A DNA stretch of 64,000 bases, from positions 40 to 64,039 of the forward strand of contig JACRMU010000007.1 in NCBI GenBank assembly GCA_016219515.1. The letters are read 5' to 3'. Both the position numbers and the translations under genes were made by a program. Shown in pieces: positions 9,439-41,561 of this stretch (position 1 is its first letter; every line of letters starts with the position of its first letter). Source of the DNA: Deltaproteobacteria bacterium. Its GTDB lineage: Bacteria > Desulfobacterota > Deferrimicrobia > Deferrimicrobiales > Deferrimicrobiaceae. The notes under the pieces are model-generated. The model did not search any database, was not told the origin of the DNA, and saw only the letters and a list, made by a program, of their open reading frames with translations.

Positions 9439-9445
9439 GAGGAAA

Positions 9446-14735: not shown

Positions 14736-14831
14736 ACGTGCACAAGATCCTGTTGCAACCAACGCGGATCGTTCCGGCGGATTTTCCGTGAGGATCGCCC
14801 GCACCATTATTCTTTCCGGACGGGAGGAAAA

Positions 14832-15797: not shown

Positions 15798-15833
15798 GCC
15801 TGATGTTCGAATACGCGAAGCGAAGGGGGAGAG

Positions 15834-16184: not shown

Positions 16185-16296
16185 TGCGTTCACGTCTCTC
16201 CTCTCCGGAACTCCCGCGGGAAAAATCGGGGGCACGTCCTTCCGTCCGTGTTTTCCGGTTACAATAAAAGAACTTCACGTCAAGCAAGGAGAGCGC

Positions 16297-17208: not shown

Positions 17209-17248
17209 ATCCTCCCCCCGGCAAAAGGGATATGTTGTAATTTGCGGG

Positions 17249-17821: not shown

Positions 17822-17879
17822 CAACCCGCCGTATTTCCTTGTACTAAAAGGGAGAATCGGCAGGACGGGGGGGAAAGCC

Positions 17880-19249: not shown

Positions 19250-19251
19250 CC

Positions 19252-22200
19252 TTGCGCAGATTCGCCATCTGGGCGGTGTTCCTGGCCGTCGCCGGGGGGT
19301 GGCTCCTGTTTTCCTCCAGCGGACAGGCCGGGATCGGGGTCGTCGGAAGTCCCCACGATTTTTCCACCACGACGCCGGGGCCCTGGACCCGGGACAATTC
19401 CGCATACACCTCGGGGGGGATCGCCCCCTCGGGCGTCTGTTCCGCCTGCCATGTGCCGCATTCCGCGAAATACGCCCCCCTGTGGCCGAGGGACCTTTCC
19501 ACCTACGACAACGCGCTCCTGCTGGATGGAAGCGGCGGGGCGACCGGGAAGCCGAATTACCGGAGGCCGATGACCAATCAGTGCTTCGACTGCCATGACT
19601 ACCACCAGACGACCACGGAACGGATCGACGACCTGCCGAACTTCTCGAAGTTCTCCAGCGTGAGCTCCGGCCACAAGCCGCAGAACATCGCGTTCGGTTA
19701 CACCACACCCACGACCGGAAAGGACCTGAACTCCACGATGAAGGAGGACATCCCGGCGGGATCGGTGTCCGGGTATTATGAAAACACCCCGCCCTACCAG
19801 ACCCAGCCCACGAGAAATTACGGCGCGACCGACAACGTCCGCCGACCCCTCGACAACACCACCTTGAGCCGGACCGGAGGCCATTACTTCAAGTCGGGGG
19901 ACCCCAACGCGAGCGGCGGGATCTATAAGGGGGACAAGCTGCCGTGCAGCGACTGCCACGAGCCGCACATGTGGGACGGCAACGGCGCCTGGCAGGCGTT
20001 CATCCGGAGGAGCTGGCCCTCCGGGAGCACGGTCGCCACCCGCCTTCAATCCTGGACGGGGCGGGCGAGCACCTACATGGCGAACGCGCCGACCCCGACC
20101 GGCGCGACCCGCAGCGACCTCGACAGCAGAACGATCTGCGAAGCGTGCCACGGGTCGGCGGACAGCGGCAATCCGCCGGTCACCTACCCCCAGATCAACG
20201 ACTCCACGTCCCCGAACCCGTATACGAACAATCAGCAGATCGTCGCCGCGCCGTCGACGGTTTCGGAACACTTCAACTCGAGGTCGCAGGCGGCCTGCGT
20301 TTCCTGCCACAACCACAACAACATCGGCGCGAGCTGCTCCCAGTGCCACGGCTTTCCGCCGAGTTCCACCGCTACCATCAAGTACCCGACGAACTTCACG
20401 CGCGTGCCCAATCCGGACAACGACGCGGACACCTCGACGCGGGACTCCCACGCCATGCATTACGGGGCGAAATCGGGGGAGACCCGGAATGCCGCCGCCG
20501 GGTATGTCTATGCCTTCGATTGCAGCACCTGCCATTACGGCTCGGCGCTCGGGACCGATTCGGCCATGGGGCACCATCAGGACAACCTGGTCTCGGTTGT
20601 CATCCAGGGGATCTATACGAAAGCGCCGAACGGCCCGGCCGGAGCGTACGACAACACGAACTATTACAACCAGGGCCCGGGGTTCCCGTTCCCGCCTACT
20701 CGGACGGGCCTGCTGGACAATACGAACGTTTCGCCCAACGGATGGGGGGCCGGGTCCCGCTACGGCGGCAACACCTGCCGCAATGTCTACTGCCACAGCG
20801 CGGGTCGGGCGCTCGCATCGATGACGCTGAACAACGACAACGACTTCCGGTCCCCCGTGTGGGACAACGGCCCCAGGCGCTGCAACGACTGCCACGGAAA
20901 AGGGACGGACAACACCGCCGTCAACTGGGGAATGCCCAGCTATGCGAACGGGGGAGCCGGACTCGACAACGCGAACTCCCATTCCGAACACGTGGTCGAC
21001 AACAGGATCGAGTGCTCCGTGTGCCATGCGGGGACGGTCACGGGCACGGGGGCGAGCCGCGCCATCGTGAGCACGGTGCCGACCCTGCACGTGAACCGGG
21101 TGCGCAACGTGCAGTTCGGCGGGGGGGCGACGGGCACCTACGACAACGCGACGAAACGGTGCAGCGTCGCCAGCTGCCACGGAGCCGGCAATCCCCAATG
21201 GGGCGGCACACTGGTCGGCTGCAGGGCGTGCCATTTGTCGAACAGCCCGGACACCGATTTCTACCTGAGCGGGACCGACAACCTCTATTCCGGCTCGGCG
21301 GTGACCAACATCGACAACACGGAATGGACATGGTCGGGGCATGGCCGGCCCACCGCGTCGGGGGCCTACGAGAAGAGCGGCTACCCCGCCGCGAACTTCG
21401 ACGGGGCCGCCGGCTCCGGCGACTCCTGCTACTATTGCCATAATTACTATGTGGCGCACGACAACTCCGTGAATCCGTTCCGGCTCAAGGACCAGACGGG
21501 GGCCGCCTCCTACCTGGCGACGCTGGGCTGGAACGCGACCTGCATGGTCTGCCATTTCCACTCGTCGACGCCGACGGCGAACCAGCCCCCGGGGTACCGG
21601 CCCGACAACACGTACACGCTGGTGAGGGCCGCATCCTCCTTCGTGGACAACGCGCATTACGGCACGAAGCATACTTCGACCAACGGCGGGAAGTTCTGCT
21701 GGGACTGCCACGATCCCCACGGCGACCGGACCCAGACCAACGGGAACAACATCTTCATGATCCACGGCGGTTCCGCGTCCCGCGGCGGGACCGCGGTCGG
21801 CTCGCTCCTGCGCCAGAGCGACAATGTTTTCGGCATCCGGGGATCCGCGGGCCAGCTCACGACCAACTACCCGGTCTTCACCGACAACGCTTCCGGCGGC
21901 AATTACGTCGACAACAACACGCCGAAACGGGGGGTCTGCCAGGTCTGCCACACGCAGCCGACGACCGGACACTACCGGTCGGACTATTACGACGGCCACA
22001 ATCTAACGGCGCGCTGCACCTCGTGCCATCCCCACAACGCGGGGTTCGCTCCCAGCGGGGGGAGAAACATCGAGCAGTTCATGGACAACGTGACGGGCAG
22101 CCCGTCGACGAACTACGAGGACCGCTCGCGGCACCCGCTGACCCTTTCGGGAAAGACGTACCCCGCGGAGGTGAACTGCCTGGGCTGCCACGGGGTCTCC

Positions 22201-23076
22201 GGCACCACGAGCGTTTCCAACGAGTGCCAGACGTGCCACTACGAATACCGCGCTGCGGACAACACGGCGCATCCGAACTCCGTGATGGCGTGGGCGACCC
22301 CGGCCGCGCCTGCGACGCTTTATGCCGCGTACCCCTCGGGCTCGATCAAGGACACGTCGCAGGGGGATGTCTGGTGCCTGCTGTGCCACGGGGTATCGAG
22401 CGGCCCGCAGCTGAACGGCCGCACGCCGCCGAACGTTCTCTCCGGCGGGCAGGTCTGGAGCGGGAGCGGCGCCTCGGGGCACGGGGCGGCTGCAAGCCTG
22501 TCGGGGGGGACTGCGGGGCCGCCGGCGTACCATTGCGGCGACTGCCACTACTCGACGGCGACCCGGACGGGCAGCTCGGAATCGCGGGACCAGCTGGCGG
22601 GAGGGTTCCACGGGAGCGTGAACCGGAAGCTGGTCCGGAACGACAACGCCTCGATCCAGGAATATCCGCACCCGGCGTCGGCAGACACGCGGTACGACAA
22701 CACGGACGAGCGTTCGACGCAGATGGATTCCTGGTGTGCGACCCAGTGCCACAGGAATTCGACCGACGGCATCCCCAGGAACGACAACGTGGTGGCCCAC
22801 ACCTGGTCGATGAAGGCCGGCGGGGTCCGTTCCGGGACCTTGAGCCACCCGACGAACATGGCGCCCGTGCCCGACGCCGCGCGGTTCCGGAACCCGCCGG
22901 CGCTTCCGCTGTCGGAGTACCTGGGGGGCGGGGCATCGCTGCCGGGTTCCGGGAACGAGGTCTGCGTCACCTGCCACGAACCGCACGCGGCAAGCAACAC
23001 GCAGTCGGACAAGCAGATGCTGCGGATGGAGTGGAACGACAACAACTCCACGCTGTGCAAGCAGTGCCACCTATGA
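19252..23076 (+). CDS. Giant multiheme c-type cytochrome (about 21 CxxCH plus 3 atypical CX3-4CH; 1274 aa)
   Basis: Signal peptide. CxxCH sites include CSACH, CFDCH, CSDCH, CEACH, CVSCH, CSQCH, CSTCH, CNDCH, CSVCH, CRACH, CYYCH, CMVCH, CWDCH, CQVCH, CTSCH, CLGCH, CQTCH, CLLCH, CGDCH, CVTCH and CKQCH. Atypical sites are CRNVYCH, CSVASCH and CATQCH. TTG start per the ORF track. Confidence 0.9.
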   Translation: MRRFAIWAVFLAVAGGWLLFSSSGQAGIGVVGSPHDFSTTTPGPWTRDNSAYTSGGIAPSGVCSACHVPHSAKYAPLWPRDLSTYDNALLLDGSGGATGKPNYRRPMTNQCFDCHDYHQTTTERIDDLPNFSKFSSVSSGHKPQNIAFGYTTPTTGKDLNSTMKEDIPAGSVSGYYENTPPYQTQPTRNYGATDNVRRPLDNTTLSRTGGHYFKSGDPNASGGIYKGDKLPCSDCHEPHMWDGNGAWQAFIRRSWPSGSTVATRLQSWTGRASTYMANAPTPTGATRSDLDSRTICEACHGSADSGNPPVTYPQINDSTSPNPYTNNQQIVAAPSTVSEHFNSRSQAACVSCHNHNNIGASCSQCHGFPPSSTATIKYPTNFTRVPNPDNDADTSTRDSHAMHYGAKSGETRNAAAGYVYAFDCSTCHYGSALGTDSAMGHHQDNLVSVVIQGIYTKAPNGPAGAYDNTNYYNQGPGFPFPPTRTGLLDNTNVSPNGWGAGSRYGGNTCRNVYCHSAGRALASMTLNNDNDFRSPVWDNGPRRCNDCHGKGTDNTAVNWGMPSYANGGAGLDNANSHSEHVVDNRIECSVCHAGTVTGTGASRAIVSTVPTLHVNRVRNVQFGGGATGTYDNATKRCSVASCHGAGNPQWGGTLVGCRACHLSNSPDTDFYLSGTDNLYSGSAVTNIDNTEWTWSGHGRPTASGAYEKSGYPAANFDGAAGSGDSCYYCHNYYVAHDNSVNPFRLKDQTGAASYLATLGWNATCMVCHFHSSTPTANQPPGYRPDNTYTLVRAASSFVDNAHYGTKHTSTNGGKFCWDCHDPHGDRTQTNGNNIFMIHGGSASRGGTAVGSLLRQSDNVFGIRGSAGQLTTNYPVFTDNASGGNYVDNNTPKRGVCQVCHTQPTTGHYRSDYYDGHNLTARCTSCHPHNAGFAPSGGRNIEQFMDNVTGSPSTNYEDRSRHPLTLSGKTYPAEVNCLGCHGVSGTTSVSNECQTCHYEYRAADNTAHPNSVMAWATPAAPATLYAAYPSGSIKDTSQGDVWCLLCHGVSSGPQLNGRTPPNVLSGGQVWSGSGASGHGAAASLSGGTAGPPAYHCGDCHYSTATRTGSSESRDQLAGGFHGSVNRKLVRNDNASIQEYPHPASADTRYDNTDERSTQMDSWCATQCHRNSTDGIPRNDNVVAHTWSMKAGGVRSGTLSHPTNMAPVPDAARFRNPPALPLSEYLGGGASLPGSGNEVCVTCHEPHAASNTQSDKQMLRMEWNDNNSTLCKQCHL

Positions 23077-24002
23077 GGCGGATTGCCGTCGTCTGCGCGG
23101 CCCTTTGCCTGTCGATCGCCGCGGAATCCCGCGGCGCAGCGGTGGAGGTTCAGGCGTTTTTCGGGAAGGAGGCCCTTCCGTTCAGTTGGGTTTCGGGGGT
23201 GTTCCGCGACGGGAACGACGTTTGGGTCGGCACGAAGAACGGTACGAGGATCTACAGCCTGGCCGGAAAGGCATGGAGAACGCCGCCGCCGGGTTTCACG
23301 GGGAACGCCGTGACGGGCCTTGCACGGTTCGGAGGGTCCCTGTACGTGGCGACCGAGGCGGGGCTGAACATCGGCGGCCCGGCCGGCTGGAAAGCCATGA
23401 ACCGCATCGCGAACGCCGTGGCGTCCGACGGAGACCTGGCCGCTTCGGAAAACACGTTGTGGATGGCCGCCCGCACGATGACCGGGGGACTCCTTCAGTT
23501 CGACGGATCCGGCTGGAAACTCCTTTCCCGGGGGGAAGGAACGGGGGTGATGAGCAACATTACCCGCCTTTCCGTCCGGAACGGGGAGCTGTGGGCCGGG
23601 ACCACGAACAACGGGATTTACCTTTTGAAATCGGGAAAATGGACGGTCATCGGCCCGGAGGACGGACTTCCCGGACTCTGGATCACCTCGCTTGCGGGAA
23701 CCGGCGACGGGATGTACGCGGGTTCTCCCGACGGCCTGGGGTTTTACGACGGGAGCCGGTGGAGGGTCTACCGCGTGGCGGACGGCCTCCCCAGCAACAA
23801 AGTGAGCGCGCTCAAAGTATATGAAAACAGGGTCGTTATCGGGACGTTCGACCGGGGGATTTCGATCTTCGACGGGAGGCGCTTCCGGAACATCGGGCGC
23901 GCGGAAGGGCTCTCCGACGACCGCGTGGAATCGATCGAGGTCGTCGGGGACGAGATCTGGGTGGGCACGATCAACGGGCTGTCGCTCGTCCGCATCCCCT
24001 GA
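23073..24002 (+). CDS. Secreted beta-propeller protein with two-component-regulator-propeller (Reg_prop)-like repeats
   Basis: ATG overlaps the cytochrome stop (ATGA). Signal peptide. Six repeats of the type ...WVGTKNGTRIYS..., ...LWAGTTNNGIYLLKSGKW..., ...IWVGTINGLSLV... Confidence 0.7.
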   Translation: MRRIAVVCAALCLSIAAESRGAAVEVQAFFGKEALPFSWVSGVFRDGNDVWVGTKNGTRIYSLAGKAWRTPPPGFTGNAVTGLARFGGSLYVATEAGLNIGGPAGWKAMNRIANAVASDGDLAASENTLWMAARTMTGGLLQFDGSGWKLLSRGEGTGVMSNITRLSVRNGELWAGTTNNGIYLLKSGKWTVIGPEDGLPGLWITSLAGTGDGMYAGSPDGLGFYDGSRWRVYRVADGLPSNKVSALKVYENRVVIGTFDRGISIFDGRRFRNIGRAEGLSDDRVESIEVVGDEIWVGTINGLSLVRIP

Positions 24003-24045
24003 AGCGGTTCCGGGGACGAGCGGCACGGGCGAGGGAGGAAAGAGC

Positions 24046-27000
24046 GTGGCGTACCGTCCGAGGCGCTTGAGCCGGTCCTGGTTCTTCGCCCTTGCCGTGG
24101 GGATCCTGCTCGCGGCGTGGAGCGCGGGGCTGGCGGACCACTCGAAGATGGACCCCAACGCCAGCTGCTATGCGTGCCACACCCTCAAGACGTCCGAGCT
24201 CCTGTCGGCGACCAAGAGCATCCGCACTTCCAAGCCGAAGATGACCAAGCTCGCGGACAACACGACGTGGACGGCGGGGATGCCTCTTTCGTGCGATTTC
24301 TGCCACCAGTCGGCGACCGACGTCCCTTCGCTGGTAAAGAGCACGAAAACCTCGCGCCACCCCGTGGACACGATCGGGAACGAGACGGACCCGACCCGGG
24401 AGATTTCCTGCAACGACTGCCACAACGCCTACTGGGATGCGACGGTCCCCGCCAACGACAACCACGAGGTGACCCCCAAGACGCTCCTGACGCAGGACAA
24501 CACGGACGGCTACCCGGACCACAAGGGGCTGGGATCGGACAACCAGTACGCGCACAACCTGCGTTCGAACCCTCCCCATCTGTCGAAGGGATACACCGGG
24601 AACATGAGTTTTTCCTCGACGACCCCCCGGATTTCCGACGGGACGTTCTGGTCGTCGTCGCTCGACGGAAGCAACCTGGTCTGCTTCGTCTGCCACGGGG
24701 GGTCGTCGTATCAGCCCCCGTTCCGCGGCGCGTCGGGGCGGTCGCAATACAACGTGATGTCGGATTACTCGGCGTCGGGTACGGCGGCGGGGCACAAGAT
24801 CAACGCGAACTTCGGCTCCAGCGGGGCCCTGGCGCAGGGCTCGAAGCTTCCGTGCTACGACTGCCACGCTTCCCATGGGAGCGCGAGCCGGCGCCTGATC
24901 CTGGACGGATATTTCGCGAGCGACAACGGGATGCGGAACATCGAGGGGACGTCGAGCCTCGCGGTGAACACGTTCACGAGCAGTTCCCCCGGCGCGACGG
25001 GAGACATCGCGGTGTGCGCGGGATGCCACAACACGGGGCTTGCGGCGACGGCGTTCAGCGCGACGGGGAAGGTGGAGAAGCTCAACCCGATGGACCCGTT
25101 CGTGAGCAGGGCGACCAGCCATACGGTGGTCGGGTCGTGGTCCTCGCCGTCGGCGACGAGGGGATGCCTGGGAACGTTTTCGGGTTGCCACGCCAGCCCG
25201 CACAATCCGATCGGGGAGAGCCTGGGAGGCCTTGGCTGCTCGACCTGCCACTCGACGATCTACACGGCGATGCAATCGTCCACGGGGTACCACCACGCGA
25301 TTCTTTCGGACAACGCGACGGCCCCGTACCCGACGAACGCGACTCCGGGCTCCGCGCCTGCGGACCGCACGTGCCGGATCTGCCACGTGGACCACGATTT
25401 CTTCAGCACCCAGACGGGCTCGAACCACCTCCGCGCGCGGAACCTGCGGCAGAGCATCTCGGTGCAGCCCAACGACAACATCTCCGCGGCGAGGCCCCTG
25501 AACACGGACTACGACAACACGCTCGGGGGGGTGTGCACCTCCTGCCACGCCAACGTGCAGACCAAGAGCGCGACGAACCTCCGGTCGGACAACGTGTGGC
25601 AGACCTCCGTGGTCAGCCAGGCGCTGTACGGGGTCGGCGCGCACAACTATGCGGTCACCTCTCCCTACATCAAGAGCCATTTCTCGTCCGACAACTCGGA
25701 CGCGACGAGCATCTTCCAGGCGAACTGCACGAAATGCCACAACGACACGATGCAGAAGAACTTCCAGGACAACAACGTTTCGTATCCGAACCAGTTCGGC
25801 CTGCACGACTCCGGGGCGGGAGGCGGCAGCGTCGTCGACAAGCTGCTGGGCCCGCTGGGGGCGACGAGCGTCGCTGAGGTCGCTGGGGAGAACTTCTGCT
25901 ACCGCTGCCACAGCCACAGCACGGACACGCTGCTGAACGGCCCCTCCAAGACGCAGGACGGGTACGACTGGTACGGCGGCAGCGTCAAGGCGATGACGCA
26001 GGCGTCGGAGAGCGTCTTCGGGGACTTCCAGAAGACCTCGCGGCACCCGGTCAAGACGGCGGACCAGAAAAGCGGGACCGCGGTGGTGTCCTGCGGGAAC
26101 TGCCACAACGCGCATGTCGTCGGCAGGACCGCGGACAACGCGGCGGTATCGAATCCCGACAATACCTATGCGATCGCCGTGTACACCACCATGGCGGGGC
26201 GGCTCAACTTCTGCCTGGCGTGCCACGACGGGAATCCCCCGGACAACACGGTGTCGGCGACCCGGTTCGTCCCCGCCCGCGTGCGGGTGGACAACGCCGT
26301 CATGAACAAGTCCACGTACGCGGCCAGGTCGCACTGGACCAGCGGCCAGGGTCAGATGTTCCTGTCCCTGGTGTGCACGAATTGCCATGACCGGCACGGC
26401 GGTTCGTTCGGAAAGCTTTTGGACAACGGCGTGAAATACCACCGCGGGCCGCAGTGGACCCCCCCCGCGTGCAATACCTGCCACGGATTCACCTCCCCTT
26501 CGGCGCCCACGGGGAACAACAACACGGAATGCTTCCGCTGCCACACGTACCAGGGGACCGGATACCCGGCGATCGAATCGGACCGGACGGCGGGGGACAA
26601 CGGCTACTTCGCCGCGCCGGGGACATCCGTGCGGTTCTCTCTCCGGTATGCCGGGAAGGCGGTGTACGAGGGGGCCTACTCGCCCCACAACAACACCGTG
26701 AAGACCTTTTCCGGGTTCGACAACGTGTCGCGCACGGTGAGCGACTGCAGGAATTGCCACGACGTCCACGGGACGGCGAACCCGTACGCGCAGCTCAAGG
26801 GGACGTACCGCTCGGGGAATTACGGGCTCTGCTTCCAGTGCCACGGGAAGACCGCGACCGCCACGGACAACATCTCCCGGTACTACCCGACGGCGGCCGG
26901 CGGCGACAACACGGACAGCGCGAGCGCGACGAACGCGGGCCACAACATCAAGACGGCGGGGGGGTACCTGGCGCAGTACACCTCGCTGCCGTGCTACGAC

Positions 27001-28680
27001 TGCCACGTGACGCACGGAAGCAAGAACTCGAACACGCAGCTCAAGAGCGACCAGACGGAGCGCGGCTGGAGCGGCCTGGGCGACACCAAGTACGGGAGCA
27101 CGCCTTCGGACAACGCGGCGGACAACAACAGCCGGAGGTTCTGTTTCGGGTGCCACGTGGCGTCGGACGGTTCCGGCACGGCGACGGTGGAGAACCTGTC
27201 GCAGGCGGGCGCGAACCGCCTGAAGCTGCCTTCGACCTACGGGATCGAGGAGCACAAGGGGGCGAGCGCGCAGGGGTGCCACCGGTGCCACTACGGGAAG
27301 AACTACAACGACAACACGTACGGCCCGCACTACCCGGCGACCGGGTTGTGCGACACGTGCCACGAGAGCCAGGGGACGAAGTCCGCGGGAGTGCCGACGT
27401 ACAACGGGGCGCACCTGAGGCACGTGGACAACACGACGTACCGGTTCGCCTGCAAGGAGTGCCACAGCTGGACGAAGGGATCGGGCCAGGCGGTGCACAA
27501 GAACGACAACACCGCCTCCGCGATCCACGCGGAGGTGGCGTTCGACAACCAGGGCTCCTCGTCGTGGGACAACATCCTGTACGCGGTGTCCACGACGTAC
27601 AAGTACCGCTCGCTGTACGCGAACCCCTATGGCGCAAGCGTGGCGTCCCCCGCGTACTCGGGAGGCACGGACAACGGAACGGACGGAAAGCAGGCGCTCC
27701 TGAAATGGCGGAACGGCAACTGCAGCAACGTCTGGTGCCACAGCACGGCGTACGCGGACAACGTGGCGAGGACCGTCGCGTGGCAGTCGGGCGTGCTCCC
27801 TTCCGGCTGCACCGGCTGCCACGGCGGCGGGAAGGCGGTCGCCGCCGCGAGCCGGATGGGGGCGTCCAACAACGGTTCTCCGGCGCACCTCGCGCACATC
27901 GACTCGAACCTCAGGTGCTACAAGTGCCATTACGGGACGATCACCGACAACACGCAGGACACGGTGATCAACGTCTACGACAACCATGTCAACGGCGTGA
28001 AAAACGTGCGCTTCCCGTCCGAGGTCGGCGGGACGTGGGACAACACGAACAAGACCTGCTCGGCGACTTACTGCCACGGCACGCCGGCGACGCTGCCCAA
28101 GTGGGACAACCTGTCGACGGTTTCCGGCTGCGGCGTGTGCCACCAGAACCAGGGGGCGGGGGCGACCGGGAGCTACGCGGGCCCGCACCATCCCCACACG
28201 ATCAGCAGCAAGCTCCGGATCGCCTGCGAGACGTGCCACGCGGTGAACGCGGCCGCGCATTCCAACACGATCCACGCGGGCGGCCCCGACAACGCGGCGT
28301 CGGGGAAGACGGCGGAAGTCCTGTACACCGATAACGCGCAAGGCCGGACGTACTCCGGCGTCGCGTTCCTGGCGAAGAACCTTTGGGTCAATCCGTTCGA
28401 CAACAACGCGGCGCTCACGCCCGTCTATGCGGGAGGTGCCTCCTCCGTGGGCAACGACGCCGTCAACGCCGCCATCCACTGGACGCAGGGGACCTGCAGC
28501 CAGGTGTGGTGCCACTCCAACGCGAAGCCCCTGGGCTGGAAGGGGGTGGCGGGGAACAACGCCTTCCGCTCCCCGCCGTGGACCTTTACCGCCTGCAATT
28601 ACTGCCACAATCCCCGTCCCACGGACGTGAACTGCACTCCGTGCCACCGCGGCGTCGGGACCGCCGCCGCCATGGCGGGC
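24046..28680 (+). CDS. Giant multiheme c-type cytochrome, N-terminal segment (about 29 CxxCH plus atypical sites); continues in another frame
   Basis: GTG at 24046 preceded by GGGAGGAAAGAGC (SD). Signal-like N-terminus with a dense run of CxxCH. The reading frame stays open to 28986, but the sequence after about 28680 is R/S/T-rich nonsense while the +2 frame carries on the cytochrome motifs, implying a frameshift near 28660-28690. Confidence 0.75.
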
Positions 28681-28681
28681 G

Positions 28682-31600
28682 TTCCGGGACGGGACACGAC
28701 AACCACGTGGACGGGATCAAGACGGTCAAGTTCGGCACGACGCTGCGGACGACGGGAATCAACCAGCAGGCGACCGGCACATACGACAATGCCGCGTACC
28801 GCTGCTACAACACGTATTGCCACAGCAACGACACCGACAACGCCGCCTTCAACACGGCGGCGCAGCAGCCGGAGGACAACACGATCTCGTGGAACTCGGC
28901 TGCGGGCGGCACCTGCCGCACGTGCCACAAGTACACCGCGGCGTCCGGCAACCCGATGGTCAGCAACGCGCACGACAACCACGTGAACAACTACGCCCGG
29001 CTCGGGAAGTACATCGCATGTTATCAGTGTCACTCCGGAACGGTGGACGCCACGGACAACGTTCCGTCGACCCGGAGCTACCTCGACAACCATGTCAACG
29101 GCATCAAGAACGTCTATTTCGGCGCGGGCGTCGGCGCGTATGACAACACCCGGACGTGCCGGAACACCTATTGCCACCAGCAGGGGAACGCGCTGCTGTC
29201 TTCATTAACGCCGGGAGACAACCTGACTCCGGCGTGGACCGACAACTGGGCGTCGCTCTCCACGATCTGCAAGGGATGTCACGGCAGCCAGACGGGGACC
29301 GGTTACAGCAACCCTTCGTACTACGGGGAGCCGAATTACGACAATAATATCGGCAGTTCCGGGGCGCGGAACAGCCACTATGTGCATGTCAACTTGATGG
29401 CCGAGGGGGTGAACTGCCTGAAATGCCACCCGGATGTCGTCACGGCAGGGAACGCCATCGACAACGCGAGTGCGGCGATGCACATGAACGACAACGTGGA
29501 AGTGGCCCCGGGGCTGGGAGAGACGTTCGTCTGGGACCAGGCAACCAAGAGCTGCACGAATATCGTTTGCCACCAGGGAAACTCGACCCCGGTCTATTGG
29601 GGAGGGCCCGTCATCCCTTGTACCGCGTGCCACTCGTTTTCCCCCGTGGGGGAGGCGGCCCCGGCCCGTGTCTCCGGCCCGGCGCCCTCGCAGGGTCCCA
29701 GTCTGGCGTCGTCGCGCGGCGCCAGGTCGGCGACGACGCCGGCGATCGGCCCTGCGGCGTCCACGCTTTCCGTTCCTGCGCCGTCACAGGTTTCCGCTCC
29801 GATCCCGCCCCGGCTTCCGAAGTCCGGACGGCATATCAAGCCCATCGCCAGGATCCGGATCGCCGGCGGCTGGGACAACACGGGCCACGGGCGGACGATG
29901 GGGCACTACGTTTCCGGAAATCCTCCGGCCAACGCGTCGAGCCGTTTCTCCGCCTGCACCAACTACTGCCACTCCAACAACCCCATGTTGACTCCCCACA
30001 CGGACAACGCCGCCGGGCGCAACTTCTTCCGGCTCGCGACGGGCGGGGGGGGCGTCGCCCGGGCGGCGATCGACTGCACCACCGCCAACAACATCTGCAA
30101 CCAGTGCCACGCACTCGGTGGAGCGCTTGCGGCGCAGGCGACGCGGCAGGTCGGGGCGGCGCACTACGGGGCGAAGCACTCCTCGCCGGGAAACAACGGG
30201 GGTTACTTCTGCTGGGATTGTCACGATCCGCACGGGGGGGGGAGCGACTTCATGATCCGGGAGCGCGTGGCGGCGAGGACCGACAGGGGGGCGAACGGCG
30301 CAGGCCTCGGAATTCCGATCGTGACCCGGGCGACGTCGTTCACCGGCTCGGGGACCTACACGTGGAGTTCCTACGTAAAGGCGACCTTCGACGGCCTCTG
30401 CCAGGTCTGCCACTCCGCCGGGACGGGGATCCGGCATTTCCACAACTCGGCGGGCGGGTACGACAACGTTCATAATCCCGGAATCCGGTGCACGACGTGC
30501 CACACCCACAAACTGTCGGTGCCGGTCATCGGTTCCGTTGCCGACGATACGTTCAAGGTGCCCGGGATTTCAGGGAAGCTGGTGGCGGGAGACAAGGTCA
30601 CCGCGGTCCTGGTCGCGGTGCCGGGGGGGAAGGCCTCCTTCGACATGGGGAAGGTCAAGGGGATCCCGATGGCGGAAGTCCCCGCGAGCCCCGGCGGGCC
30701 GGGCATTCCGGCCGTCGACAACGGGACTTACCGGGGGACCTACACGATCCGGCCCGGGGATGACTACATCGAAGGGCGCATCGTCGGGCAGTTCGTGTCC
30801 TCCGACAACGTCGCAGCCGTGCCGCTGGCCTCGGCCTCCAAGTGGACGATCGACACGCAGCCGCGCGTGGCCTACGCCATCGACAAGACGGACCTTCCGG
30901 CCGACTCGGCGAGCAAGGCGAGAGTACGCCTTGTCGTCAAGGACGCCAACGGGAACGTCCTCAAGGGGAGGCGCTTCAAGCTGACGCTGGCGACGACCGA
31001 CGAATACACGGGCCTGGTGGGCGCCGGAAACTTCGGCAAGGACGTGGGGGCGACCGTCGAGGCCCTCTGGCAGGGGCAGACGGACGCCTGGGGGACGGTG
31101 GAATTCGACTACAAGGCGGGGTTCGCGGCGAAGACGGTGATCCTTGCCGCCAAGGACCTCGAATCGGGCGGAGTCGCGGTGGATTACATCACCTCCTACA
31201 AGGAGGCCTCCATCGACATTGCGCTGACCCCGCCCCGCAGCCTTGCCGCCGCGCGCCGCGGGCTGCAGTACATCATCAAGATCGAGGCGACCCGGACGGT
31301 GCTCACGGCCGACGGCCAGAGCCGGTCGGTGATCCGGGCGACGGTGACGGACCCCGGCGGGAAAGCGGTCGCGGGCGACAACGTCGTGTTCACGCTGTCG
31401 AGCCCGAACGGGTCGATACGGACGATCGAAGGGGTCACGAACGCTTCCGGGGTGGCGACGGCGGAGTACATCGCGGGGAAGAAGATCGGGATCGTCGTCG
31501 TCACCGCGACCGATATCCTGAGGAACGTCTCCGCAAGCGTCAGCATCGTCCTCCTGTCGGATGCCCCGGCGAAGATCTATCTCAAGGCGAGGCCCGAGAG

Positions 31601-32159
31601 CCTTCCGGCGGACGGGTTCAGCCGGTCGGACATCCAGGTGAAGGTGACCGACATCAACGACAACCCGAACGACAACACGAAGGTGGAGTTCCGGCTCGCG
31701 AAGGGGACGGGCAAGCTGGATTCCCAGGAGCGGGTGACGGACCGCTTCGGCGAAGCGCTGAACCGGTTTACCGCCGGGACCGTGCCGGGGATCGCGACCG
31801 TCCTTGCGACCGTGCGCTCGAAAGTCCCCACGTTGGCGGAGCTGGCCAAGGCGCAGAACGTCCTCTTCGTCCCGTATTCGGACCAGGGAGAGGAGATCCG
31901 GGTATCCCGATGGCTGAAGAAAAAGGGGGATACCGCCTTGAAGGGGGAGGCCGTCGTGGAGTACACGATCGGCCGGGGCGACACGGTCTACACGCTCAAT
32001 GCGCCGTACGATTGCCGGATCGACTTCCAGTACGTGGAATACTGGGACCGCGCCCAGACCGGCGACACGCTGGCCCAGATCACGCCGGTCGTCATCCCGG
32101 GATCCGCCGGCACGCTGCCGGCGTCGATCCCGGCGAGCCTTTCCCCAAGGAGAAGGTAA
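28682..32159 (+). CDS. Giant multiheme c-type cytochrome, C-terminal segment (about 9 CxxCH plus about 5 CX3-4CH, a P/S/A-rich linker, and tandem bacterial Ig-like domains)
   Basis: Begins ...GHDNHVDGIKTVKFG..., which repeats a motif found upstream (DNHVNGVKNVRF). CRTCH, CYQCH, CKGCH, CLKCH, CTACH, CNQCH, CWDCH, CQVCH and CTTCH. The C-terminal ~550 aa show Big_1/invasin-like repeats (...ADGFSRSDIQVKVTDINDNPNDNTKVEFRL...). Confidence 0.7.
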
Positions 32160-32192
32160 GGGACAGGGCGGCGGTTGTGCGTTTGTCGAAGT

Positions 32193-32213
32193 GGAGGGGG
32201 GGATGCCCCCTCC
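32193..32213 (+). terminator. GC-rich hairpin downstream of the giant cytochrome (possible terminator; the T-rich tract lies about 30 nt further on)
   Basis: GGAGGGGG-GGATG-CCCCCTCC: an 8-bp stem and 5-nt loop. TCTCTTTTTTCC at 32245..32256. Confidence 0.3.
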
Positions 32214-32279
32214 GGACGCCTTGAATATCGCGCTGTTTTACATCTCTCTTTTTTCCGTTCAAGCCGCTTGATTCCGCTG

Positions 32280-32307
32280 TTGTTTCGGCGCTTGTCCTGT
32301 CTATAAT
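32280..32307 (+). promoter_or_regulatory. Candidate sigma70-type promoter for the M6 protease operon (TTGTTT-N16-TATAAT)
   Basis: TTGTTT at 32280..32285, TATAAT at 32302..32307, about 55 nt upstream of the ATG at 32363. Confidence 0.35.
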
Positions 32308-32362
32308 ACTCCCGACGTGCTCGCGGTACGTCGATCGGCGCGCCAAACGCCAGAGGGGTGGC

Positions 32363-35300
32363 ATGACCGGACGGAAAGCTTGGCGTCTATGGATTTGTCT
32401 GCTCACGATCCTGGTCGCGTCCCGGGCGGAAGCCCTCCCCCCCCCACGGCCCGGCCTCGTGGACCCGCATACGCTGCGGTACCGGACCACGGGCCATAAG
32501 GTCCCCGTGCTCCCGAAAGCGGTCCGGGAGCATCGAATTTCTCCCCAAAAGGGGAAGTACCCGCTCGCCGCCGGTTTCTTCGCTGCGACAAGGTCCCTCG
32601 TGGCGGGGACAACGTCCGGCGTGAGGCCCCGCGCGATCCCGACGCCCGCCTCCGGCGCCCTCCGCCCGCTGATCGTGCTGGTCGACTTCGCGGACAAGCC
32701 GCACGATGACGCCGCGCACCCGGCCTCGGCGTACACTCCGCTCTTCTTCGGGAGCGGAGCGAGTGACCTGAGCGTCGCCAACTACTGGAATGAAGTGTCG
32801 TACGGGACGTTCACGCTCACCACGCTGTACAACCCCGACAGCACCTCGGTCGACATCGTCGGGTGGATCCGGCCGGCGGCATCCCCGGCCCTCTCCGGGG
32901 AATTCCGCTCGACGATCGTCTCCTACGCGCAGATCACGGACTCCGTCACGGGCGTCAACCTGACGAACCTGCGCACGCTGGTCACCGACATCGTCGCATA
33001 CCTCGACGGCGCGCCGAACAACCTGGATTTCGCACCGTACGCGGACCCCGCCACGGGGATCGTCCAGTCGCTGATCCTGGTGCACGCGGGGGCAGGGCAG
33101 GAGGACACGGGGAATACCGCGGACCTCTTTTCCCATAGCGCGTCCCTTGCATCTCCGGCCGGGACGAACGATACGGACGCCGGCGGCCATCAGGTCACGG
33201 TGGCCGACTACAGCGCCGTTCCGGAGCAGTTGAGCTTCGACCCCGCGACCGGCGCATCGACCCCCGTCCTCATCGGCGCGGGGGTGATCGCCCACGAAAT
33301 GGGCCACCTGTTCGGCCTTCCGGATCTCTACCCCACGTCCGGAACGTCCGGCCAGACCGGCGGCTACTCGGGAGTCGGCGTTTTCGACCTCATGGGCTAC
33401 GGGCTGTGGGGGAGCAACCTTCTCGCCCGGCCGGACAATCCCGCGCACCTTTCCGCGTGGTCCAAGTCGGACCTGGGGTGGGTCACCCCGACGGTCCTTT
33501 CCGCGACGTCTTCCAATACGCTCCTTCCGGCGGGGTCGACGGCGTCGGCCTACAAGGTGTACCCCAACGGGCCGGGGGACGAGTCGCAATATTTCCTTCT
33601 CGAGCTGAGGGGAAAAGACGGCCCCGGACTCTTCGACCGGTACCTGCCCGGGAACGGGGTGCTCGTCTGGCGCGTGGACTCCGAGCAGATGTCCGGTCAA
33701 CGGTCGGGCAACGCGGCGAACAACGATTCGAGCTTCCCCGCCCTTTCCGTGCAGGAAGCGGATCTCTCCGGCGCAAGCCCGTCGCCGCACCTGTTCCAGC
33801 CGTTCTCCATCGGCGCCGACGCGTTCGGCGCCGCGGGGGATTTCTTCTCCTCCTCGGGTCAGGTCTTCTCCCGGGTCCTGCCGGTGGACGGCCAGAACCT
33901 CACCAATTCCTCTCCGACGATCAACACCTCCTCCGTCAACCACCTCTTCGACGCCGGGTTCCTCGTCACCGTCCGGAATTTCGTCGTGACCATCGTCACC
34001 CGGATCGTGAACGCGGTCTTCGACCTGGCCGTCGAGCTTCCCTATTGGAAGGTCTACCGCTCCACGGATGCCCAGCCGACCCTGAACACCAACAAGACGC
34101 TTTCCTACGGCTTCGACGGTTCGAACCGGACCTGGGTGGGGACGACGGACCAGGGAATCTGGATTTTCGCCTTGACCACGTGGACCCAGATCAACTCGGC
34201 CCTTCTCCGGTCCTCCCGGATCCAGGCGATGGCCTATGAGCCCTCCACCGGCTCCATGTGGGTCGGAACCGATCAGACGGTGGCGAAGATCCGGCTCGAC
34301 CAGGTCCGGAGCGACGAAATCTTTCCCGCTTCCCCCTCCACCATCAACGTGAAGGGGATCCGGATCGCCCGCGACCTGACGAAATGGATCGGAGGGGGGC
34401 GACAGCTTGCGATCGTCACCGATGCCGGGAACAACCAGCCCAGCGGCCTTGCGTACACCGACCTGACTTTCAAGGTCCCCCTCCTGTCGGGCGAGCAGAT
34501 CACCTGCGTGGAGTTGGACAACGTCTTTTCGACGGACCAGACCAAGGACCTTCTGTACATCGGGACGTCCGTGGGGAACATCTACAGGAATTTCCGGGAG
34601 TCGGACAACGCCGTCTTGAGCCTCTACACCCTGTCCCTTCTTTCCTTCGAGAAGATGACCGCGCTGTCGCTGGCGGCCAATGCGCCGGGGGCCGTCAACG
34701 CGATGGCCATCGACAAGACGGGGCTGCTCTGGGTCGCGACCGACCGGGGAGTCTTCGCGTTCGACCGCGGGGACCCTTCGTCTTCCGACCCGGGCATCCG
34801 CTCCGACCGGTACAACCCCTTCGACCTTGCCGGGGACAACTCGGTGACCTCGCTCGTCTACTTCCCTCCCTCGTTCAGCGGGACGGGGGCCCACGGGTCG
34901 GCCGGGTTCATCGAGCCGACCGGCATCGCCTTCCAGGACACGGGACAGGCGCGAAACATCGTCTGGGTGTCCTACGGAGATACCGTCGGCTCCACGGAGT
35001 CGGCTTCCGGGGGCGCGGGGCGGATCGACCCCAACGTCCTCCTGAACACCCGGATCCCCAAGGACAACGCCGCCGGCATCAATGCCGTCGATTCGGCGCG
35101 GATCGGCCATGCGACGATGACGTTCACGAGGAACGCTTCCAGCCCGGAAAAGGGGCCGGCCGTCAACGATCTCATCGCCGCCGCGGGGGACGGCTCCTCC
35201 AACCTGTGGTTCGGGACGAAGAATTCCGGCGCCGTCCGTTTCGGTTCGGGGGCCTCGCTGACCCTCGACAAGACGGTCTACATCAACGATTCCGCCGCCG

Positions 35301-35938
35301 CCGGCGTGACGCTGGTCGACGAAAACGCCGTTACGACCTCCCTGGAGGTGACGGTCACCGGTTCGTCGGACGGGACCGGGTTTTCCATGACGCTTCCCAG
35401 GGGGACGGACAACGTCTACCGCGGCACGTTCGGCTTTTCGACGTCGGCCACCGACAACACGAGGTCGCCCAAGGTAATCCTGGTGAAGAACGGGGATACC
35501 GTGACCGTCAGCTACCGGGACATCAATCCGCCCTCCACCAAGTCCGCTTCCGCCACGTGGAGGAGCGTCTTCCCCTTCCACGACAGCCTGTTCATCGGAG
35601 GATGTTTCCTCTCGACGGCGGCATACGGCTCGGCGATGGCGCCCGAGGTGCAGACGCTCCGGCGTTTCCGGGATGCCTGGCTCCTCCGGGCCCCGGGAGG
35701 GGAAGCGCTCGTGTCCGCGTATTACCGGGTGAGCCCCCCTCTCGCGGCGTTCATCGCCGGGCGGCCGCTTCTGCGGCTTGCGGCAAGGGTGTTCCTCGCC
35801 CCCGCGGTCCTTCTGGCGAATGTCGCCGTGGGCGCGTGCCTTGCGGAGAAAATCGCCTCGTTGCTGATCGTCCTGCTCCTCCCGGGGTTCCTTTTTCTCT
35901 TTCCTCGGCGAACCATCGGACGGGCCGGCCGCCGTTGA
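32363..35938 (+). CDS. M6-family (immune inhibitor A-like) metalloprotease-domain protein with beta-propeller repeats and a conserved C-terminal sorting-like tail
   Basis: Signal peptide. VIAHEMGHLFGLPDLY (HExxHxxGxxDxY, diagnostic of M6/InhA). Later Reg_prop-like repeats (WVGTTDQGIWIF, LLYIGTSVGNIY, LWVATDRGVFAF). C-terminal CFLSTAAYGS...LRRFRD...YYRVSPP... followed by a hydrophobic stretch ending ...PRRTIGRAGRR. Confidence 0.8.
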   Translation: MTGRKAWRLWICLLTILVASRAEALPPPRPGLVDPHTLRYRTTGHKVPVLPKAVREHRISPQKGKYPLAAGFFAATRSLVAGTTSGVRPRAIPTPASGALRPLIVLVDFADKPHDDAAHPASAYTPLFFGSGASDLSVANYWNEVSYGTFTLTTLYNPDSTSVDIVGWIRPAASPALSGEFRSTIVSYAQITDSVTGVNLTNLRTLVTDIVAYLDGAPNNLDFAPYADPATGIVQSLILVHAGAGQEDTGNTADLFSHSASLASPAGTNDTDAGGHQVTVADYSAVPEQLSFDPATGASTPVLIGAGVIAHEMGHLFGLPDLYPTSGTSGQTGGYSGVGVFDLMGYGLWGSNLLARPDNPAHLSAWSKSDLGWVTPTVLSATSSNTLLPAGSTASAYKVYPNGPGDESQYFLLELRGKDGPGLFDRYLPGNGVLVWRVDSEQMSGQRSGNAANNDSSFPALSVQEADLSGASPSPHLFQPFSIGADAFGAAGDFFSSSGQVFSRVLPVDGQNLTNSSPTINTSSVNHLFDAGFLVTVRNFVVTIVTRIVNAVFDLAVELPYWKVYRSTDAQPTLNTNKTLSYGFDGSNRTWVGTTDQGIWIFALTTWTQINSALLRSSRIQAMAYEPSTGSMWVGTDQTVAKIRLDQVRSDEIFPASPSTINVKGIRIARDLTKWIGGGRQLAIVTDAGNNQPSGLAYTDLTFKVPLLSGEQITCVELDNVFSTDQTKDLLYIGTSVGNIYRNFRESDNAVLSLYTLSLLSFEKMTALSLAANAPGAVNAMAIDKTGLLWVATDRGVFAFDRGDPSSSDPGIRSDRYNPFDLAGDNSVTSLVYFPPSFSGTGAHGSAGFIEPTGIAFQDTGQARNIVWVSYGDTVGSTESASGGAGRIDPNVLLNTRIPKDNAAGINAVDSARIGHATMTFTRNASSPEKGPAVNDLIAAAGDGSSNLWFGTKNSGAVRFGSGASLTLDKTVYINDSAAAGVTLVDENAVTTSLEVTVTGSSDGTGFSMTLPRGTDNVYRGTFGFSTSATDNTRSPKVILVKNGDTVTVSYRDINPPSTKSASATWRSVFPFHDSLFIGGCFLSTAAYGSAMAPEVQTLRRFRDAWLLRAPGGEALVSAYYRVSPPLAAFIAGRPLLRLAARVFLAPAVLLANVAVGACLAEKIASLLIVLLLPGFLFLFPRRTIGRAGRR

Positions 35939-37719
35939 TGCGCGGATCCGGATATATCTTATGGATGGTTGCGGCCGCGGTCCTTATGCTGCTGGAAGGC
36001 TCCGCGCGGGGGGCGGGATTGATCAGCGGGAGCTACGAGTTGACCGTCGATGAAACCGTCGACAAGACGGCGAGCGGAACGACCCGGGCCGTCCGGTCGA
36101 AAAACACGCTGGACCTGCGGTACAAGGGATTTCTCGCCCCCGTCATACAGAACGAGCTGACCTTCAAGGTGGAGCAGTTCCGCGATTCGACGGGACCCGA
36201 CACGGTGAAGATCTTCCCGGGGATCTCCCTGGGCTACAAGGGATCGTACTGGAACGCCGGCGCGAAAAGGACGATCGAGGATTCGAACGAGGTCGGGAAG
36301 ACCGCTTCCATCACCGACAGCTACTTCATGGAGGTGTTCCTCGTGCCGCCGAGGAGACTTCCGGACTTCAAGGGGAAGTACACGCTGGAGACGAACTTCC
36401 AGGAGGGATCCACCGATACGCGGAAGACCTCCTGGAACCTGTCGTCCAACTACCGTCCATACGATTGGCTCGACGTGAAGGGGGATTACTCCCGGAACCT
36501 GAACGACGACCGGCTGAAGGCCGACTCGGACACGGAAGAGGAAAGAATCAGCGGAACGGGAGGCATTCGACACTTCATCTCCAACAAGATCAAACTTGAT
36601 ATACAGTACAAGGTGGAAAAGAATACCGGGGCGACTCTCCTGGATGCGGGAGGAGCGAAAAACCAGAAAGAGGAAGAGACGCAGACGGTAAAGAACCTGA
36701 TTGCCTTCCGCCCCTTCAGGGACACGAACGTCGACGCATCCTTCGACGGCGAGCTGAAGGAGAACCACGTGAGCGGGGAGCATAACCTGACCGGCAACTT
36801 CAAGGTTTCCGCCGGGCAGAAGATCGGACAACCGTACGACCTCAAGGCGGATTTCGGGCGGAACATCACGGAAGCGCGTCATACCGCGGACGACAACAAG
36901 AAAACGGAAGACACGGTAACGGTGGATTGGAAGGCGAAATATTCGAGCTTGCTCGATTTTTCCGTGAAATACCTCAAGAAGGACATCGAAGAGGACCATC
37001 CGTTCGACCTGACGAAGAACACGTCGTCCGGGAACGAGGAGTGGACCGCTTCCTGGGTGTCCCAGATCCTGCCCACGTTGAACGCGTCGTTTTCCTACGA
37101 CAAGAACGATACCTTTTCCCGGGGGGCCAAGTCCGCCGTCGACACCCGGTACAACCTGAAAGCCAACGTCGCCCTGAGGGACATCAACCTGACGCTCGAT
37201 CCTTCCTACGAAATCGCATTCAAAAACGACCTGGTGACGATGGTGAAGAGCGAAACGCGGGACTTCCGCGTCGCGCTGACCTACAAGCCGATCGAAACGA
37301 ACAACATCAACTCCCTCCTGTCCCATACGTACGCCCGCAAGGAGGATTCCCTGGCGAACAACATCAACCGGACGGACAGCACGTCGGGAAACGTCACGTG
37401 GAAGGACCCCCTTCCCGGATGGATGATGGGATTCGACATCACCCGGCAGGCGACCGACACGAGCAACGACGATCTCCCGCCGGACATCACCACCAATTTC
37501 GGCGTGAAGGCCTCCTACAAGTACCGGCGGCTGGCGTTCGACACGTCCTACAAGTACGACAAGAAGAAGATCTCCGACGACAGCGAAAGCTTCGACGTGA
37601 AGGTGGGCTGGACGGCGCCCTCCTGGGACGCCAGTCTCACCTACGCCTTCAAGAGGACGTTCTCCGTGGCTCCGAACGAGGGACAAAGCATCGGTTTCGC
37701 TTTCCGATACGTTTTTTAA
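35938..37719 (+). CDS. Putative outer-membrane beta-barrel protein
   Basis: Signal peptide and alternating amphipathic beta-strand pattern throughout. Terminal ...FAFRYVF with C-terminal Phe. ATG overlaps the upstream stop. Confidence 0.55.
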   Translation: MRGSGYILWMVAAAVLMLLEGSARGAGLISGSYELTVDETVDKTASGTTRAVRSKNTLDLRYKGFLAPVIQNELTFKVEQFRDSTGPDTVKIFPGISLGYKGSYWNAGAKRTIEDSNEVGKTASITDSYFMEVFLVPPRRLPDFKGKYTLETNFQEGSTDTRKTSWNLSSNYRPYDWLDVKGDYSRNLNDDRLKADSDTEEERISGTGGIRHFISNKIKLDIQYKVEKNTGATLLDAGGAKNQKEEETQTVKNLIAFRPFRDTNVDASFDGELKENHVSGEHNLTGNFKVSAGQKIGQPYDLKADFGRNITEARHTADDNKKTEDTVTVDWKAKYSSLLDFSVKYLKKDIEEDHPFDLTKNTSSGNEEWTASWVSQILPTLNASFSYDKNDTFSRGAKSAVDTRYNLKANVALRDINLTLDPSYEIAFKNDLVTMVKSETRDFRVALTYKPIETNNINSLLSHTYARKEDSLANNINRTDSTSGNVTWKDPLPGWMMGFDITRQATDTSNDDLPPDITTNFGVKASYKYRRLAFDTSYKYDKKKISDDSESFDVKVGWTAPSWDASLTYAFKRTFSVAPNEGQSIGFAFRYVF

Positions 37720-38813: not shown

Positions 38814-38921
38814 GGTAGCCCTCGTTCGGGAAATGCGGGCCAAGGGACGAAAAAGGGAGAATCCGGCGCTCCGCCGGCCTGTCCGGCGGGAGCGTCGATC
38901 GAACATCGAGAGGAGAAGAAT

Positions 38922-40004: not shown

Positions 40005-40016
40005 CCACGGGAGGAG

Positions 40017-40967: not shown

Positions 40968-40969
40968 TC

Positions 40970-41557: not shown

Positions 41558-41561
41558 GCGG

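Follow-up and report, generated by a model that had tools for sequence, protein, structure and literature searches.

Uncultured bacteria and archaea are thought to respire minerals, humics or partner cells by means of giant multiheme cytochromes, and the positioning of such long heme chains in the cell envelope is the problem on which the locus described here bears. The nearest concept comes from anaerobic methanotrophic (ANME) archaea, whose MHC-A and MHC-B proteins contain 20–86 heme motifs fused to S-layer domains, with an M6-peptidase-like domain in the same polypeptide in MHC-B (PMC9012536). Cytochromes with CxxxxCH/CxxCH domains (TIGR01904/PF09698) were first defined in Geobacter sulfurreducens, and a predicted nanowire-like member from Geobacter has 27 sites (PMC11492766). 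The Deferrimicrobiota (formerly MBNT15) are predicted to reduce iron and encode cytochromes with up to 43 hemes (PMC9386147). Here, we analyzed a 64,000-nucleotide stretch (the window) of contig JACRMU010000007.1, which belongs to a metagenome-assembled genome (MAG; GCA_016219515.1) that is probably of the latter phylum, and focused on a giant cytochrome gene at 24046–32159. Alignment with its relatives shows that this is a single gene interrupted on the contig by a 124-nt deletion, and that an in-frame fusion has joined its heme-bearing part to an immunoglobulin (Ig)-like tail that most relatives encode as a separate secreted protein.

The giant protein resembles MHC-A and MHC-B in that a very large heme chain is linked covalently to a heme-free module of the envelope type, and in that a role in carrying electrons across an outer layer is proposed. 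An M6-like domain is part of the MHC-B polypeptide, whereas an M6 protease gene adjoins the giant gene here. The ANME proteins use an S-layer module (DUF1608), whereas the present protein comes from a bacterium with two membranes and has a Big_1/invasin-type tail; the likeness is one of concept, and no sequence relationship is claimed. Compared with the Geobacter members of TIGR01904/PF09698, the giant protein is much longer (46 sites), comes from another phylum, bears the Ig tail and contains the dipeptide Asp-Asn at 5–6 times the expected frequency. Porin-cytochrome conduits (MtrCAB, Pcc) also cluster cytochromes with a probable barrel and periplasmic helpers, and stretches resembling MtrC/MtrF domains II/IV occur in the giant protein. 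However, the Mtr system consists of separate 10-heme units rather than 46 sites in one chain, its surface cytochrome is a lipoprotein whereas no lipoprotein signal is found here, no MtrB/PioB match was obtained at this locus, and the DmsE/MtrA model reached only 39.8 bits against a cut-off of 192.2. Judged by these comparisons, the giant protein is not a member of the Mtr/Pcc families; having no PDB sequence match at E<=0.01, it is not placed in the filament families either. Its size, which an earlier reading from the sequence alone (the sequence-only reading) had ranked among the largest of multiheme cytochromes, is unremarkable for metagenomes: the protein search that recovered its orthologues also returned cytochromes of 4,445–4,526 aa with 60 CxxCH motifs, and the literature holds examples with 86 motifs and, in peat metagenomes, 116 (bioRxiv 10.64898/2026.05.27.727921). 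What is new is the fused cytochrome-Ig-tail architecture and the partnership that it implies.

Since the window has a GC content of about 65%, long spurious open reading frames (ORFs) are common, and real frames were picked by CxxCH codon patterns and by GC content at third codon positions (GC3). On the plus strand, 29 CxxCH motifs fall in one frame (position modulo 3 = 1, spanning 24166–28633) and nine in another (modulo 3 = 0, spanning 28914–30489), and none was found in any minus-strand frame. GC3 is 0.83–1.0 in the first frame until about 28660 and 0.87–1.0 in the second from about 28690, placing the switch at about 28675–28690. When joined at 28677, the two frames yield a product of 2704 aa with 38 CxxCH, six CxxxxCH and one CxxxCH motifs, the last heme site (CTTCH) lying at 30489–30503; the length and CxxCH count are as the sequence-only reading gave them, and its eight or so CX3-4CH sites come down to seven. 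By composition about 0.14 CxxCH motifs would be expected, compared to the 38 in this product and 39 in an intact orthologue. The gene starts with GTG at 24046, preceded by a GGAGG-type ribosome-binding site.

Protein searches recovered two orthologues that cover 100% of the joined product, P0001 (2744 aa, 95% identical) and P0002 (2751 aa, 82% identical), each encoded as one ORF on independent ENA contigs and thus crossing the junction without interruption. A further 2744-aa copy (P0175) is present on a JGI contig, and samples that contain the intact allele include ERZ27256953 and ERZ27248239. These comparisons bear out the proposal that both frames encode one protein, and they show that 24046–32159 is one gene for a predicted Sec-exported c-type cytochrome. 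In the DNA alignment, 124 nt (41 codons and one nucleotide) that every relative has at the junction are absent from the window, and a few joint bases are altered. With this segment go 41 conserved residues (ADNLSNAHITHAATDRYYFSCDECHAWTVPNDSHGNSGLGIIA), among them one conserved CDECH heme site, and the reading frame changes by -1. The missing segment is retained in P0003 and P0004, relatives that are only about 48% identical; blastn against the related locus L005 places an identical gap at the joint, and the segment was not found elsewhere in the window. Because 124 nt with a heme site are missing, a one-base correction would not restore the gene. A one-base sequencing error was rejected on the DNA and protein alignments, and the frame change, for which re-sequencing of 28600..28720 had been suggested, comes from the 124-nt deletion rather than from a small indel.

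As assembled, the first frame encodes 1544 real residues followed by 102 out-of-frame residues up to a stop at 28986 (1646 aa). The NCBI record MBI5341860.1 ("CxxxxCH/CxxCH domain-containing protein") covers 28707–32159 only (1150 aa), and its GTG start at 28707 falls within a conserved DNHVDG motif. Comparison with the intact genes identifies it as a gene-caller product of the broken gene; without a signal peptide of its own, the 3' half could not be exported or receive heme. Since the lesion removes a heme site and the public record names this signal-less half only, any heme count or cytochrome inventory drawn from this MAG is in error for this gene.

Whether the deletion belongs to the organism or to the assembly bears on what the host can make. 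The ratio of nonsynonymous to synonymous substitution rates (dN/dS) against the related locus L001 is 0.147 for the sequence 5' of the break and 0.119 for that 3' of it, and no additional stops or shifts occur in the 3.5 kb beyond it; purifying selection thus persists in the 3' half, and the break is either very recent or an assembly artefact. A real deletion, by which this strain would lately have acquired an inactive or truncated allele whose sole product is an N-terminal fragment with 29 CxxCH motifs, has something near an even chance of being correct. The sequence as given supports it, and a loss of 124 nt, not a multiple of three and with altered joint bases, resembles a mutation rather than a base-calling error; multiheme cytochromes of Geobacter reportedly show raised mutation rates and diversity. 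However, the downstream sequence shows no decay and the allele is seen in one assembly only. That the genome really carries an intact gene for about 2744 aa, from which short-read assembly, polishing or binning lost 124 nt, is a serious if somewhat more tentative possibility. It fits a contig that comes from a MAG, a 3' half under selection equal to that on the 5' half with no other lesions, and the failure to find the deletion allele in JGI metagenome contigs, where a 30-mer across the joint had no match and a 22-mer matched ten contigs that share only 23 bases with the window, in an unrelated gene. On the other hand, the joint lies outside any long repeat, its flanks share only about 5 nt (GCGGG), and six joint bases (CGTTCC) differ from both flanks in relatives; thus, simple repeat collapse does not explain the deletion. 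We give next to no credence to two independent genes or to one gene read by programmed -1 ribosomal frameshifting. The change of frame is indeed -1 and NCBI annotates the 3' half alone, but all relatives have a single ORF with 41 extra conserved codons at the site, and the 3' start lies inside a conserved motif and yields a product that could not receive heme. Programmed frameshifting in particular was rejected and is excluded by the absence of a slippery heptamer at the joint together with the unshifted orthologues, which have the 124 extra nucleotides. In either of the two favored cases, alignment shows that the 124-nt deletion on this MAG contig removes 41 conserved codons and shifts the frame.

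The intact orthologues, of 2744–2751 aa, comprise about 2195 aa with 46 predicted heme-attachment sites (39 CxxCH, six CxxxxCH and one CxxxCH) and a heme-free tail of 550 aa. Both halves match Pfam models for Cytochrome_C7, MtrC/MtrF II-IV, Paired_CXXCH_1 and GSu_C4xC__C2xCH, and have TIGR01904/PF09698 units in common. P0001 scores 116.1 bits against TIGR01904 (cut-off 27) over five stretches, each window half exceeds the Pfam cut-off of 21.7 for PF09698, and the aligned homologues, a Geobacteraceae protein among them, show little or no variation at the six CxxxxCH sites. By these matches the giant protein is a member of the TIGR01904 CxxxxCH/CxxCH family. Its heme part carries 2.1 heme sites per 100 aa, and a further 66 His residues are available for distal ligation, which is enough for predicted bis-His ligation at all sites. 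The N-terminal signal peptide (MAYRPRRLSRSWFFALAVGILLAAWSAG), called by inspection and a hydropathy scan rather than by a dedicated predictor, is the sole hydrophobic segment in P0001, and its basic-hydrophobic character is conserved in P0001 and P0002. No lipobox Cys follows the signal segment (...LLAAWSAGLADHS) and the hydropathy scan revealed no C-terminal transmembrane helix.

The last 550 or so residues were described at the outset as tandem Big_1/invasin-type Ig domains, and Pfam agrees, finding Big_1 in three stretches (E-value 7e-25) and Invasin_D3 in two (5e-21). With no His and a single Cys, the tail is not part of the heme chain. An AlphaFold model of it (predicted local distance difference test score, pLDDT, 84.9) contains four beta-sandwich domains and a small C-terminal barrel. 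Foldseek matched the model to Ig/macroglobulin (MG) arrays (complement C3 and C5, and alpha-2-macroglobulin including the periplasmic form of E. coli) and to the adhesin FdeC (4e9l); these matches are generic, with template modeling (TM) scores of about 0.2, low values being expected for flexible domain strings. The intimin/invasin/FdeC adhesins likewise combine tandem Big_1 and Invasin_D3 domains. However, they end in a lectin where this protein has a lipoyl/HlyD-like barrel, and neither the N-terminal beta-barrel translocator nor the LysM domain of inverse autotransporters was detected by Pfam in the window halves or P0001. In domain content, the giant protein is thus not a member of the inverse autotransporter family.

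A search with the tail (window 30501–32156) retrieved more than 100 stand-alone proteins of about 760–840 aa that are 65–75% identical over 95–99% of the tail, and one, P0176, that is 96% identical. These proteins have their own signal peptide and a LamG-like N-terminal domain, none of the 120 listed contains a CxxCH motif, and their named relatives, like those of the window's Dxs protein (100% identical to MBI5341885.1), include Candidatus Deferrimicrobiaceae MAGs. Across these stand-alone LamG-Ig-barrel proteins ("invasin domain 3-containing protein") the tail is 65–96% identical over its full length, and they occupy the same position beside giant cytochromes; where they have a signal peptide and LamG, the window gene has the cytochrome. 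In L005, for example, a cytochrome fragment of at least 1486 aa is followed after a 40-nt gap by P0176 and then an M6 protease. A 2617-aa cytochrome (P0011) precedes the tail protein P0225 in L006, one of at least 2334 aa precedes P0191 in L007, and in L008 two genes separate a 2974-aa cytochrome (P0003) from the tail protein. A scan of genome contigs, among which the window's own genome was not included, added only a stand-alone tail protein (L003) and, separately, a distant Coriobacteriaceae cytochrome. The sequence-only reading had placed the Ig region within the cytochrome; this holds in the present clade, where the tail lies in one ORF with it, and fails in most relatives, where the region belongs to a separate secreted protein of about 800 aa.

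The joint between the two ancestral genes can be read from the alignments to the L005 cytochrome and P0176, with a consensus of CT(T/N)CHTH followed by (K/G)LS..PVI and the peptide ...CHTHKLSVPVIGS... across it. The L005 cytochrome aligns with P0001 up to CT(T/N)CHTH and then continues for about 606 aa with six CxxCH motifs, whereas P0001 past the joint has the tail protein's ...LS..PVI(A/G)S..DD(S/T)FKVPGISGK. Aligned as DNA, the window and L005 share 96.4% identity across 5.5 kb right of the joint and 82–94% on its left side, and a segment of about 2.69 kb in L005 is absent from the window. The fusion thereby cost the cytochrome its final ~600 aa and the tail protein its initial ~271 aa, along with the spacer. 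An exhaustive HMMER search of 1.84 billion representative proteins found the full-length tail in proteins of up to about 1,300 aa, and only the P0001 cluster joins it to a longer protein; the 11 others that were checked have no heme motif. The fused form is confined to the window, P0001, P0175 and P0002. Since the separate arrangement is widespread and the fused one restricted to a small clade, the fusion is derived. On these alignments, a giant cytochrome next to a separate secreted signal peptide-LamG-Ig-tail protein is shown to be the ancestral arrangement, which in this clade gave way to a single gene when about 2.7 kb was lost in frame. In the fused lineage, purifying selection acts on the tail. 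Chimeric assembly is an unlikely source of P0001, P0002 and P0175, because different ENA, JGI and NCBI assemblies supplied the copies, whose identities to the window are 82% and 95%.

Within the heme-bearing part, the proposed P/S/A-rich linker (about 29640..29880) was located, in frame and conserved in orthologues, at slightly narrower limits (Table 1). Protein alignment shows that about 54 aa of it are an insertion unique to the fused clade. A 24-nt unit is repeated 2.1 times inside the insertion (29751–29800; APSQ... twice), and this tandem duplication suggests that the insertion grew by local duplication. Out-of-frame sequence was rejected as its source, as its own frame has the highest GC3 (0.67–0.90) in most windows and the protein sequence is conserved in P0002.

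Table 1. Features of the giant cytochrome gene and of its neighbourhood, in window positions
Feature	Position	Strand	Remarks
Giant cytochrome gene	24046-32159	+	Two frames joined at 28677
5' part of disrupted gene	24046..28679	+	29 CxxCH and 3 CxxxxCH; Pfam cytochrome hits
Deletion joint	28672..28690	+	124 nt missing relative to L001, L002 and L005
3' heme-bearing part, other frame	28677..30509	+	9 CxxCH, 3 CxxxxCH, 1 CxxxCH
P/S/A-rich stretch	29637..29810	+	58 aa with 12 P, 11 S, 12 A; in frame
Fusion joint KLSV	30510..30521	+	Alignments to L005 cytochrome and P0176
Heme-free tail	30522..32159	+	Pfam Big_1, Invasin_D3; AlphaFold model
Tail beta-sandwich domains	30528-30851, 30858-31229, 31263-31556, 31566-31820	+	AlphaFold model
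Small lipoyl/HlyD-like barrel	31860-32090	+	Weak HlyD_3 and Biotin_lipoyl matches
Upstream cytochrome	19252..23076	+	1274 aa, 21 CxxCH, CxxxxCH/CxxCH domains; same position in L002 and L006
Secreted beta-propeller-like protein	23073..24002	+	309 aa; Reg_prop match; between both cytochromes in all related loci
M6-family metalloprotease (MBI5341861.1)	32363..35938	+	1191 aa; HEMGH; propeller/PorZ-like middle; CFI-box C-terminus
Probable outer-membrane beta-barrel	35938..37719	+	577 aa; signal peptide, no Cys, C-terminal ...FRYVF
Lipoprotein	about 37746-38813		Lipobox LVAGC, weak LpoB-like domain, Pro/Ala-rich C-terminus; between porin-like and SurA-like genes
SurA-like protein	38814-40004		
NHL propeller	40005-40967		
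Redoxin	within 40757-41557		
Redoxin-decaheme fusion	41550-43109		One ORF: AhpC/TSA-type redoxin and ten CxxCH, four Paired_CXXCH_1
Multiheme cytochromes, 7 and 8 CxxCH	336-1472, about 2087-3763		Flank two redoxin genes at 1426-2552
Redoxins	several, e.g. 1426-2552, 12362-13027		Five thiol-disulfide redoxin-domain genes near giant gene
NapH/NosR-like polyferredoxin	13191-14735		
DUF362 protein	14832-15797		
PqqD-like and SPASM proteins	15804-17208		
Extracytoplasmic function (ECF) sigma and anti-sigma factors	16934-18653		Sigma 16934-17821; anti-sigma (zf-HC2, CBM48) 17880-18653

The gene order around the giant gene is conserved in L001 and L002, and the neighbours listed in Table 1, combined with the heme density and spare His residues, support a function in electron transfer. 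The heme part would act as a long electron wire of an extracellular or envelope-spanning system, drawing electrons from candidates such as the membrane polyferredoxin and the smaller cytochromes, with the porin-like barrel as a candidate for passage through the outer membrane and the SurA-like protein among the accompanying genes. Adjacent redoxins could help to keep the approximately 46 heme-attachment sites reduced for heme attachment after Sec export. OmcS filaments extend by about 0.8 nm per heme, and scaled from them the chain could span tens of nanometres. The redox-inert tail may anchor or dock the cytochrome to the envelope, a partner protein or a surface; among relatives the tail is 65–75% identical compared to 38–48% for the cytochrome, and such conservation fits a docking or anchoring module. 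The fusion also suggests that relatives without it use cytochrome and tail protein as a physical pair, and we offer this pairing as a hypothesis on the strength of a fusion under purifying selection in one lineage and of adjacency in several related loci. The segments deleted were exactly the C-terminal extension of the cytochrome and LamG, which fits their serving as the non-covalent interface in unfused systems. The account as a whole, namely one gene with a 124-nt break, a derived fusion and an electron wire with an anchoring tail, has in our estimate a probability of roughly 75%; its functional part we infer from domain content and gene context.

Where in the envelope such a wire would run is a narrower question. 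A surface conduit is plausible from the gene neighbourhood, and several observations count against it or against the account more generally. The giant protein lacks a lipobox, and the window ORFs that were scanned include no type II secretion genes, which leaves surface exposure unexplained. The 577-aa barrel reaches 25.7 bits against Porin_4 (E=1.2e-5), below the Pfam cut-off of 27, and has no match in NCBIfam, including the MtrB/PioB models. A PDB sequence search with P0001 gave no match at E<=0.01, and an AlphaFold model of its CxxxxCH/CxxCH region (aa 1200–1900, from an 11-sequence alignment) was unusable at pLDDT 32.9. Finally, the gene is broken in this genome; should the assembly be correct, the full protein may not be produced by the organism at all. 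The Sec signal without a lipobox and the missing secretion genes would suit a periplasmic electron store or periplasm-spanning wire, held by its Ig tail to peptidoglycan, to a partner protein or to the outer membrane on its inner face, as would a tail fold shared with MG/Ig arrays that include the periplasmic alpha-2-macroglobulin of E. coli. However, Big_1 and invasin D3 are domains characteristic of surface adhesins, and a translationally coupled porin-like gene lies two genes downstream; we regard this periplasmic placement as unlikely, although it is the stronger of the alternatives for function. A polymerising filament subunit of the OmcS/OmcE/OmcZ type is very improbable. High heme density favors it, and the adjacent M6 protease resembles, by analogy, the OmcZ-processing protease OzpA. 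On the other hand, filament subunits have 4–8 hemes, whereas a 46-heme chain is already of wire length, and neither similarity to a solved structure nor a usable heme-region model speaks for polymerisation.

Beyond the surface-conduit account, the fusion could be read more boldly as a natural "Rosetta stone", by which the widespread LamG-Ig-barrel proteins would serve the giant heme wires of Deferrimicrobiota as dedicated partners for docking or anchoring, with the lost ~600 aa and LamG as their non-covalent interface and with the M6 protease, porin-like barrel and propellers forming a new envelope-spanning machine unrelated to Mtr/Pcc. We consider this extended proposal doubtful.

Among the other neighbours, the M6 protease gene follows the tail gene in L001, L002 and L005 with its HEMGH site intact, and its stop codon overlaps the start of the barrel gene (TGATG). 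The barrel itself has no match among PDB sequences. The lipoprotein downstream has a long Lys/Glu-rich segment that resembles a coiled coil, and the AhpC/TSA redoxin-decaheme fusion is also present at the end of L002. Upstream, the block at 13191–18653 is kept ahead of the cytochrome genes in L002; its polyferredoxin, DUF362, PqqD-like and SPASM genes suggest a peptide-maturation set, for which a precursor was not identified. A scan of 17500–37400 for promoters and terminators gave nothing above background.

The heme parts of these cytochromes also share an unusual composition. In the window (24046–30509 and 19252–23076) and in the relatives compared (P0001–P0005, P0008 and P0011), Asp-Asn is over-represented 5–6 times. 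There are 53 occurrences in P0001 compared to 9.2 expected (shuffle standard deviation 2.9) and 28 in the upstream cytochrome compared to 5.7, and the reverse dipeptide Asn-Asp is at its expected level. Asp-Asn is better conserved than the average dipeptide, at 92% versus 71% in P0002 and about 50% versus 30% in P0003 and P0004, and giant cytochromes of Coriobacteriia and Geobacteraceae show no such enrichment. A plain N-x-S/T sequon was rejected, as DNx[ST] fits only 12 of the 53 sites. Glycosylation-type genes lie near the giant cytochrome and tail genes in several relatives (L008 11358–13814, L006 17357–19495, L007 9655–12027) and encode STT3/AglB-like proteins, PMT_2 with TPR and TMEM260_N with TPR; in the window, 7058–11732 and 3764–5674 are occupied by a GT4/GT2 cluster and by a 636-aa protein in which just a weak TPR match, at the C-terminus, was seen. 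From their location, these genes may be related to the Asp-Asn motif, which, conserved and enriched as it is, might signal a new kind of modification or a new structural code in such cytochromes.

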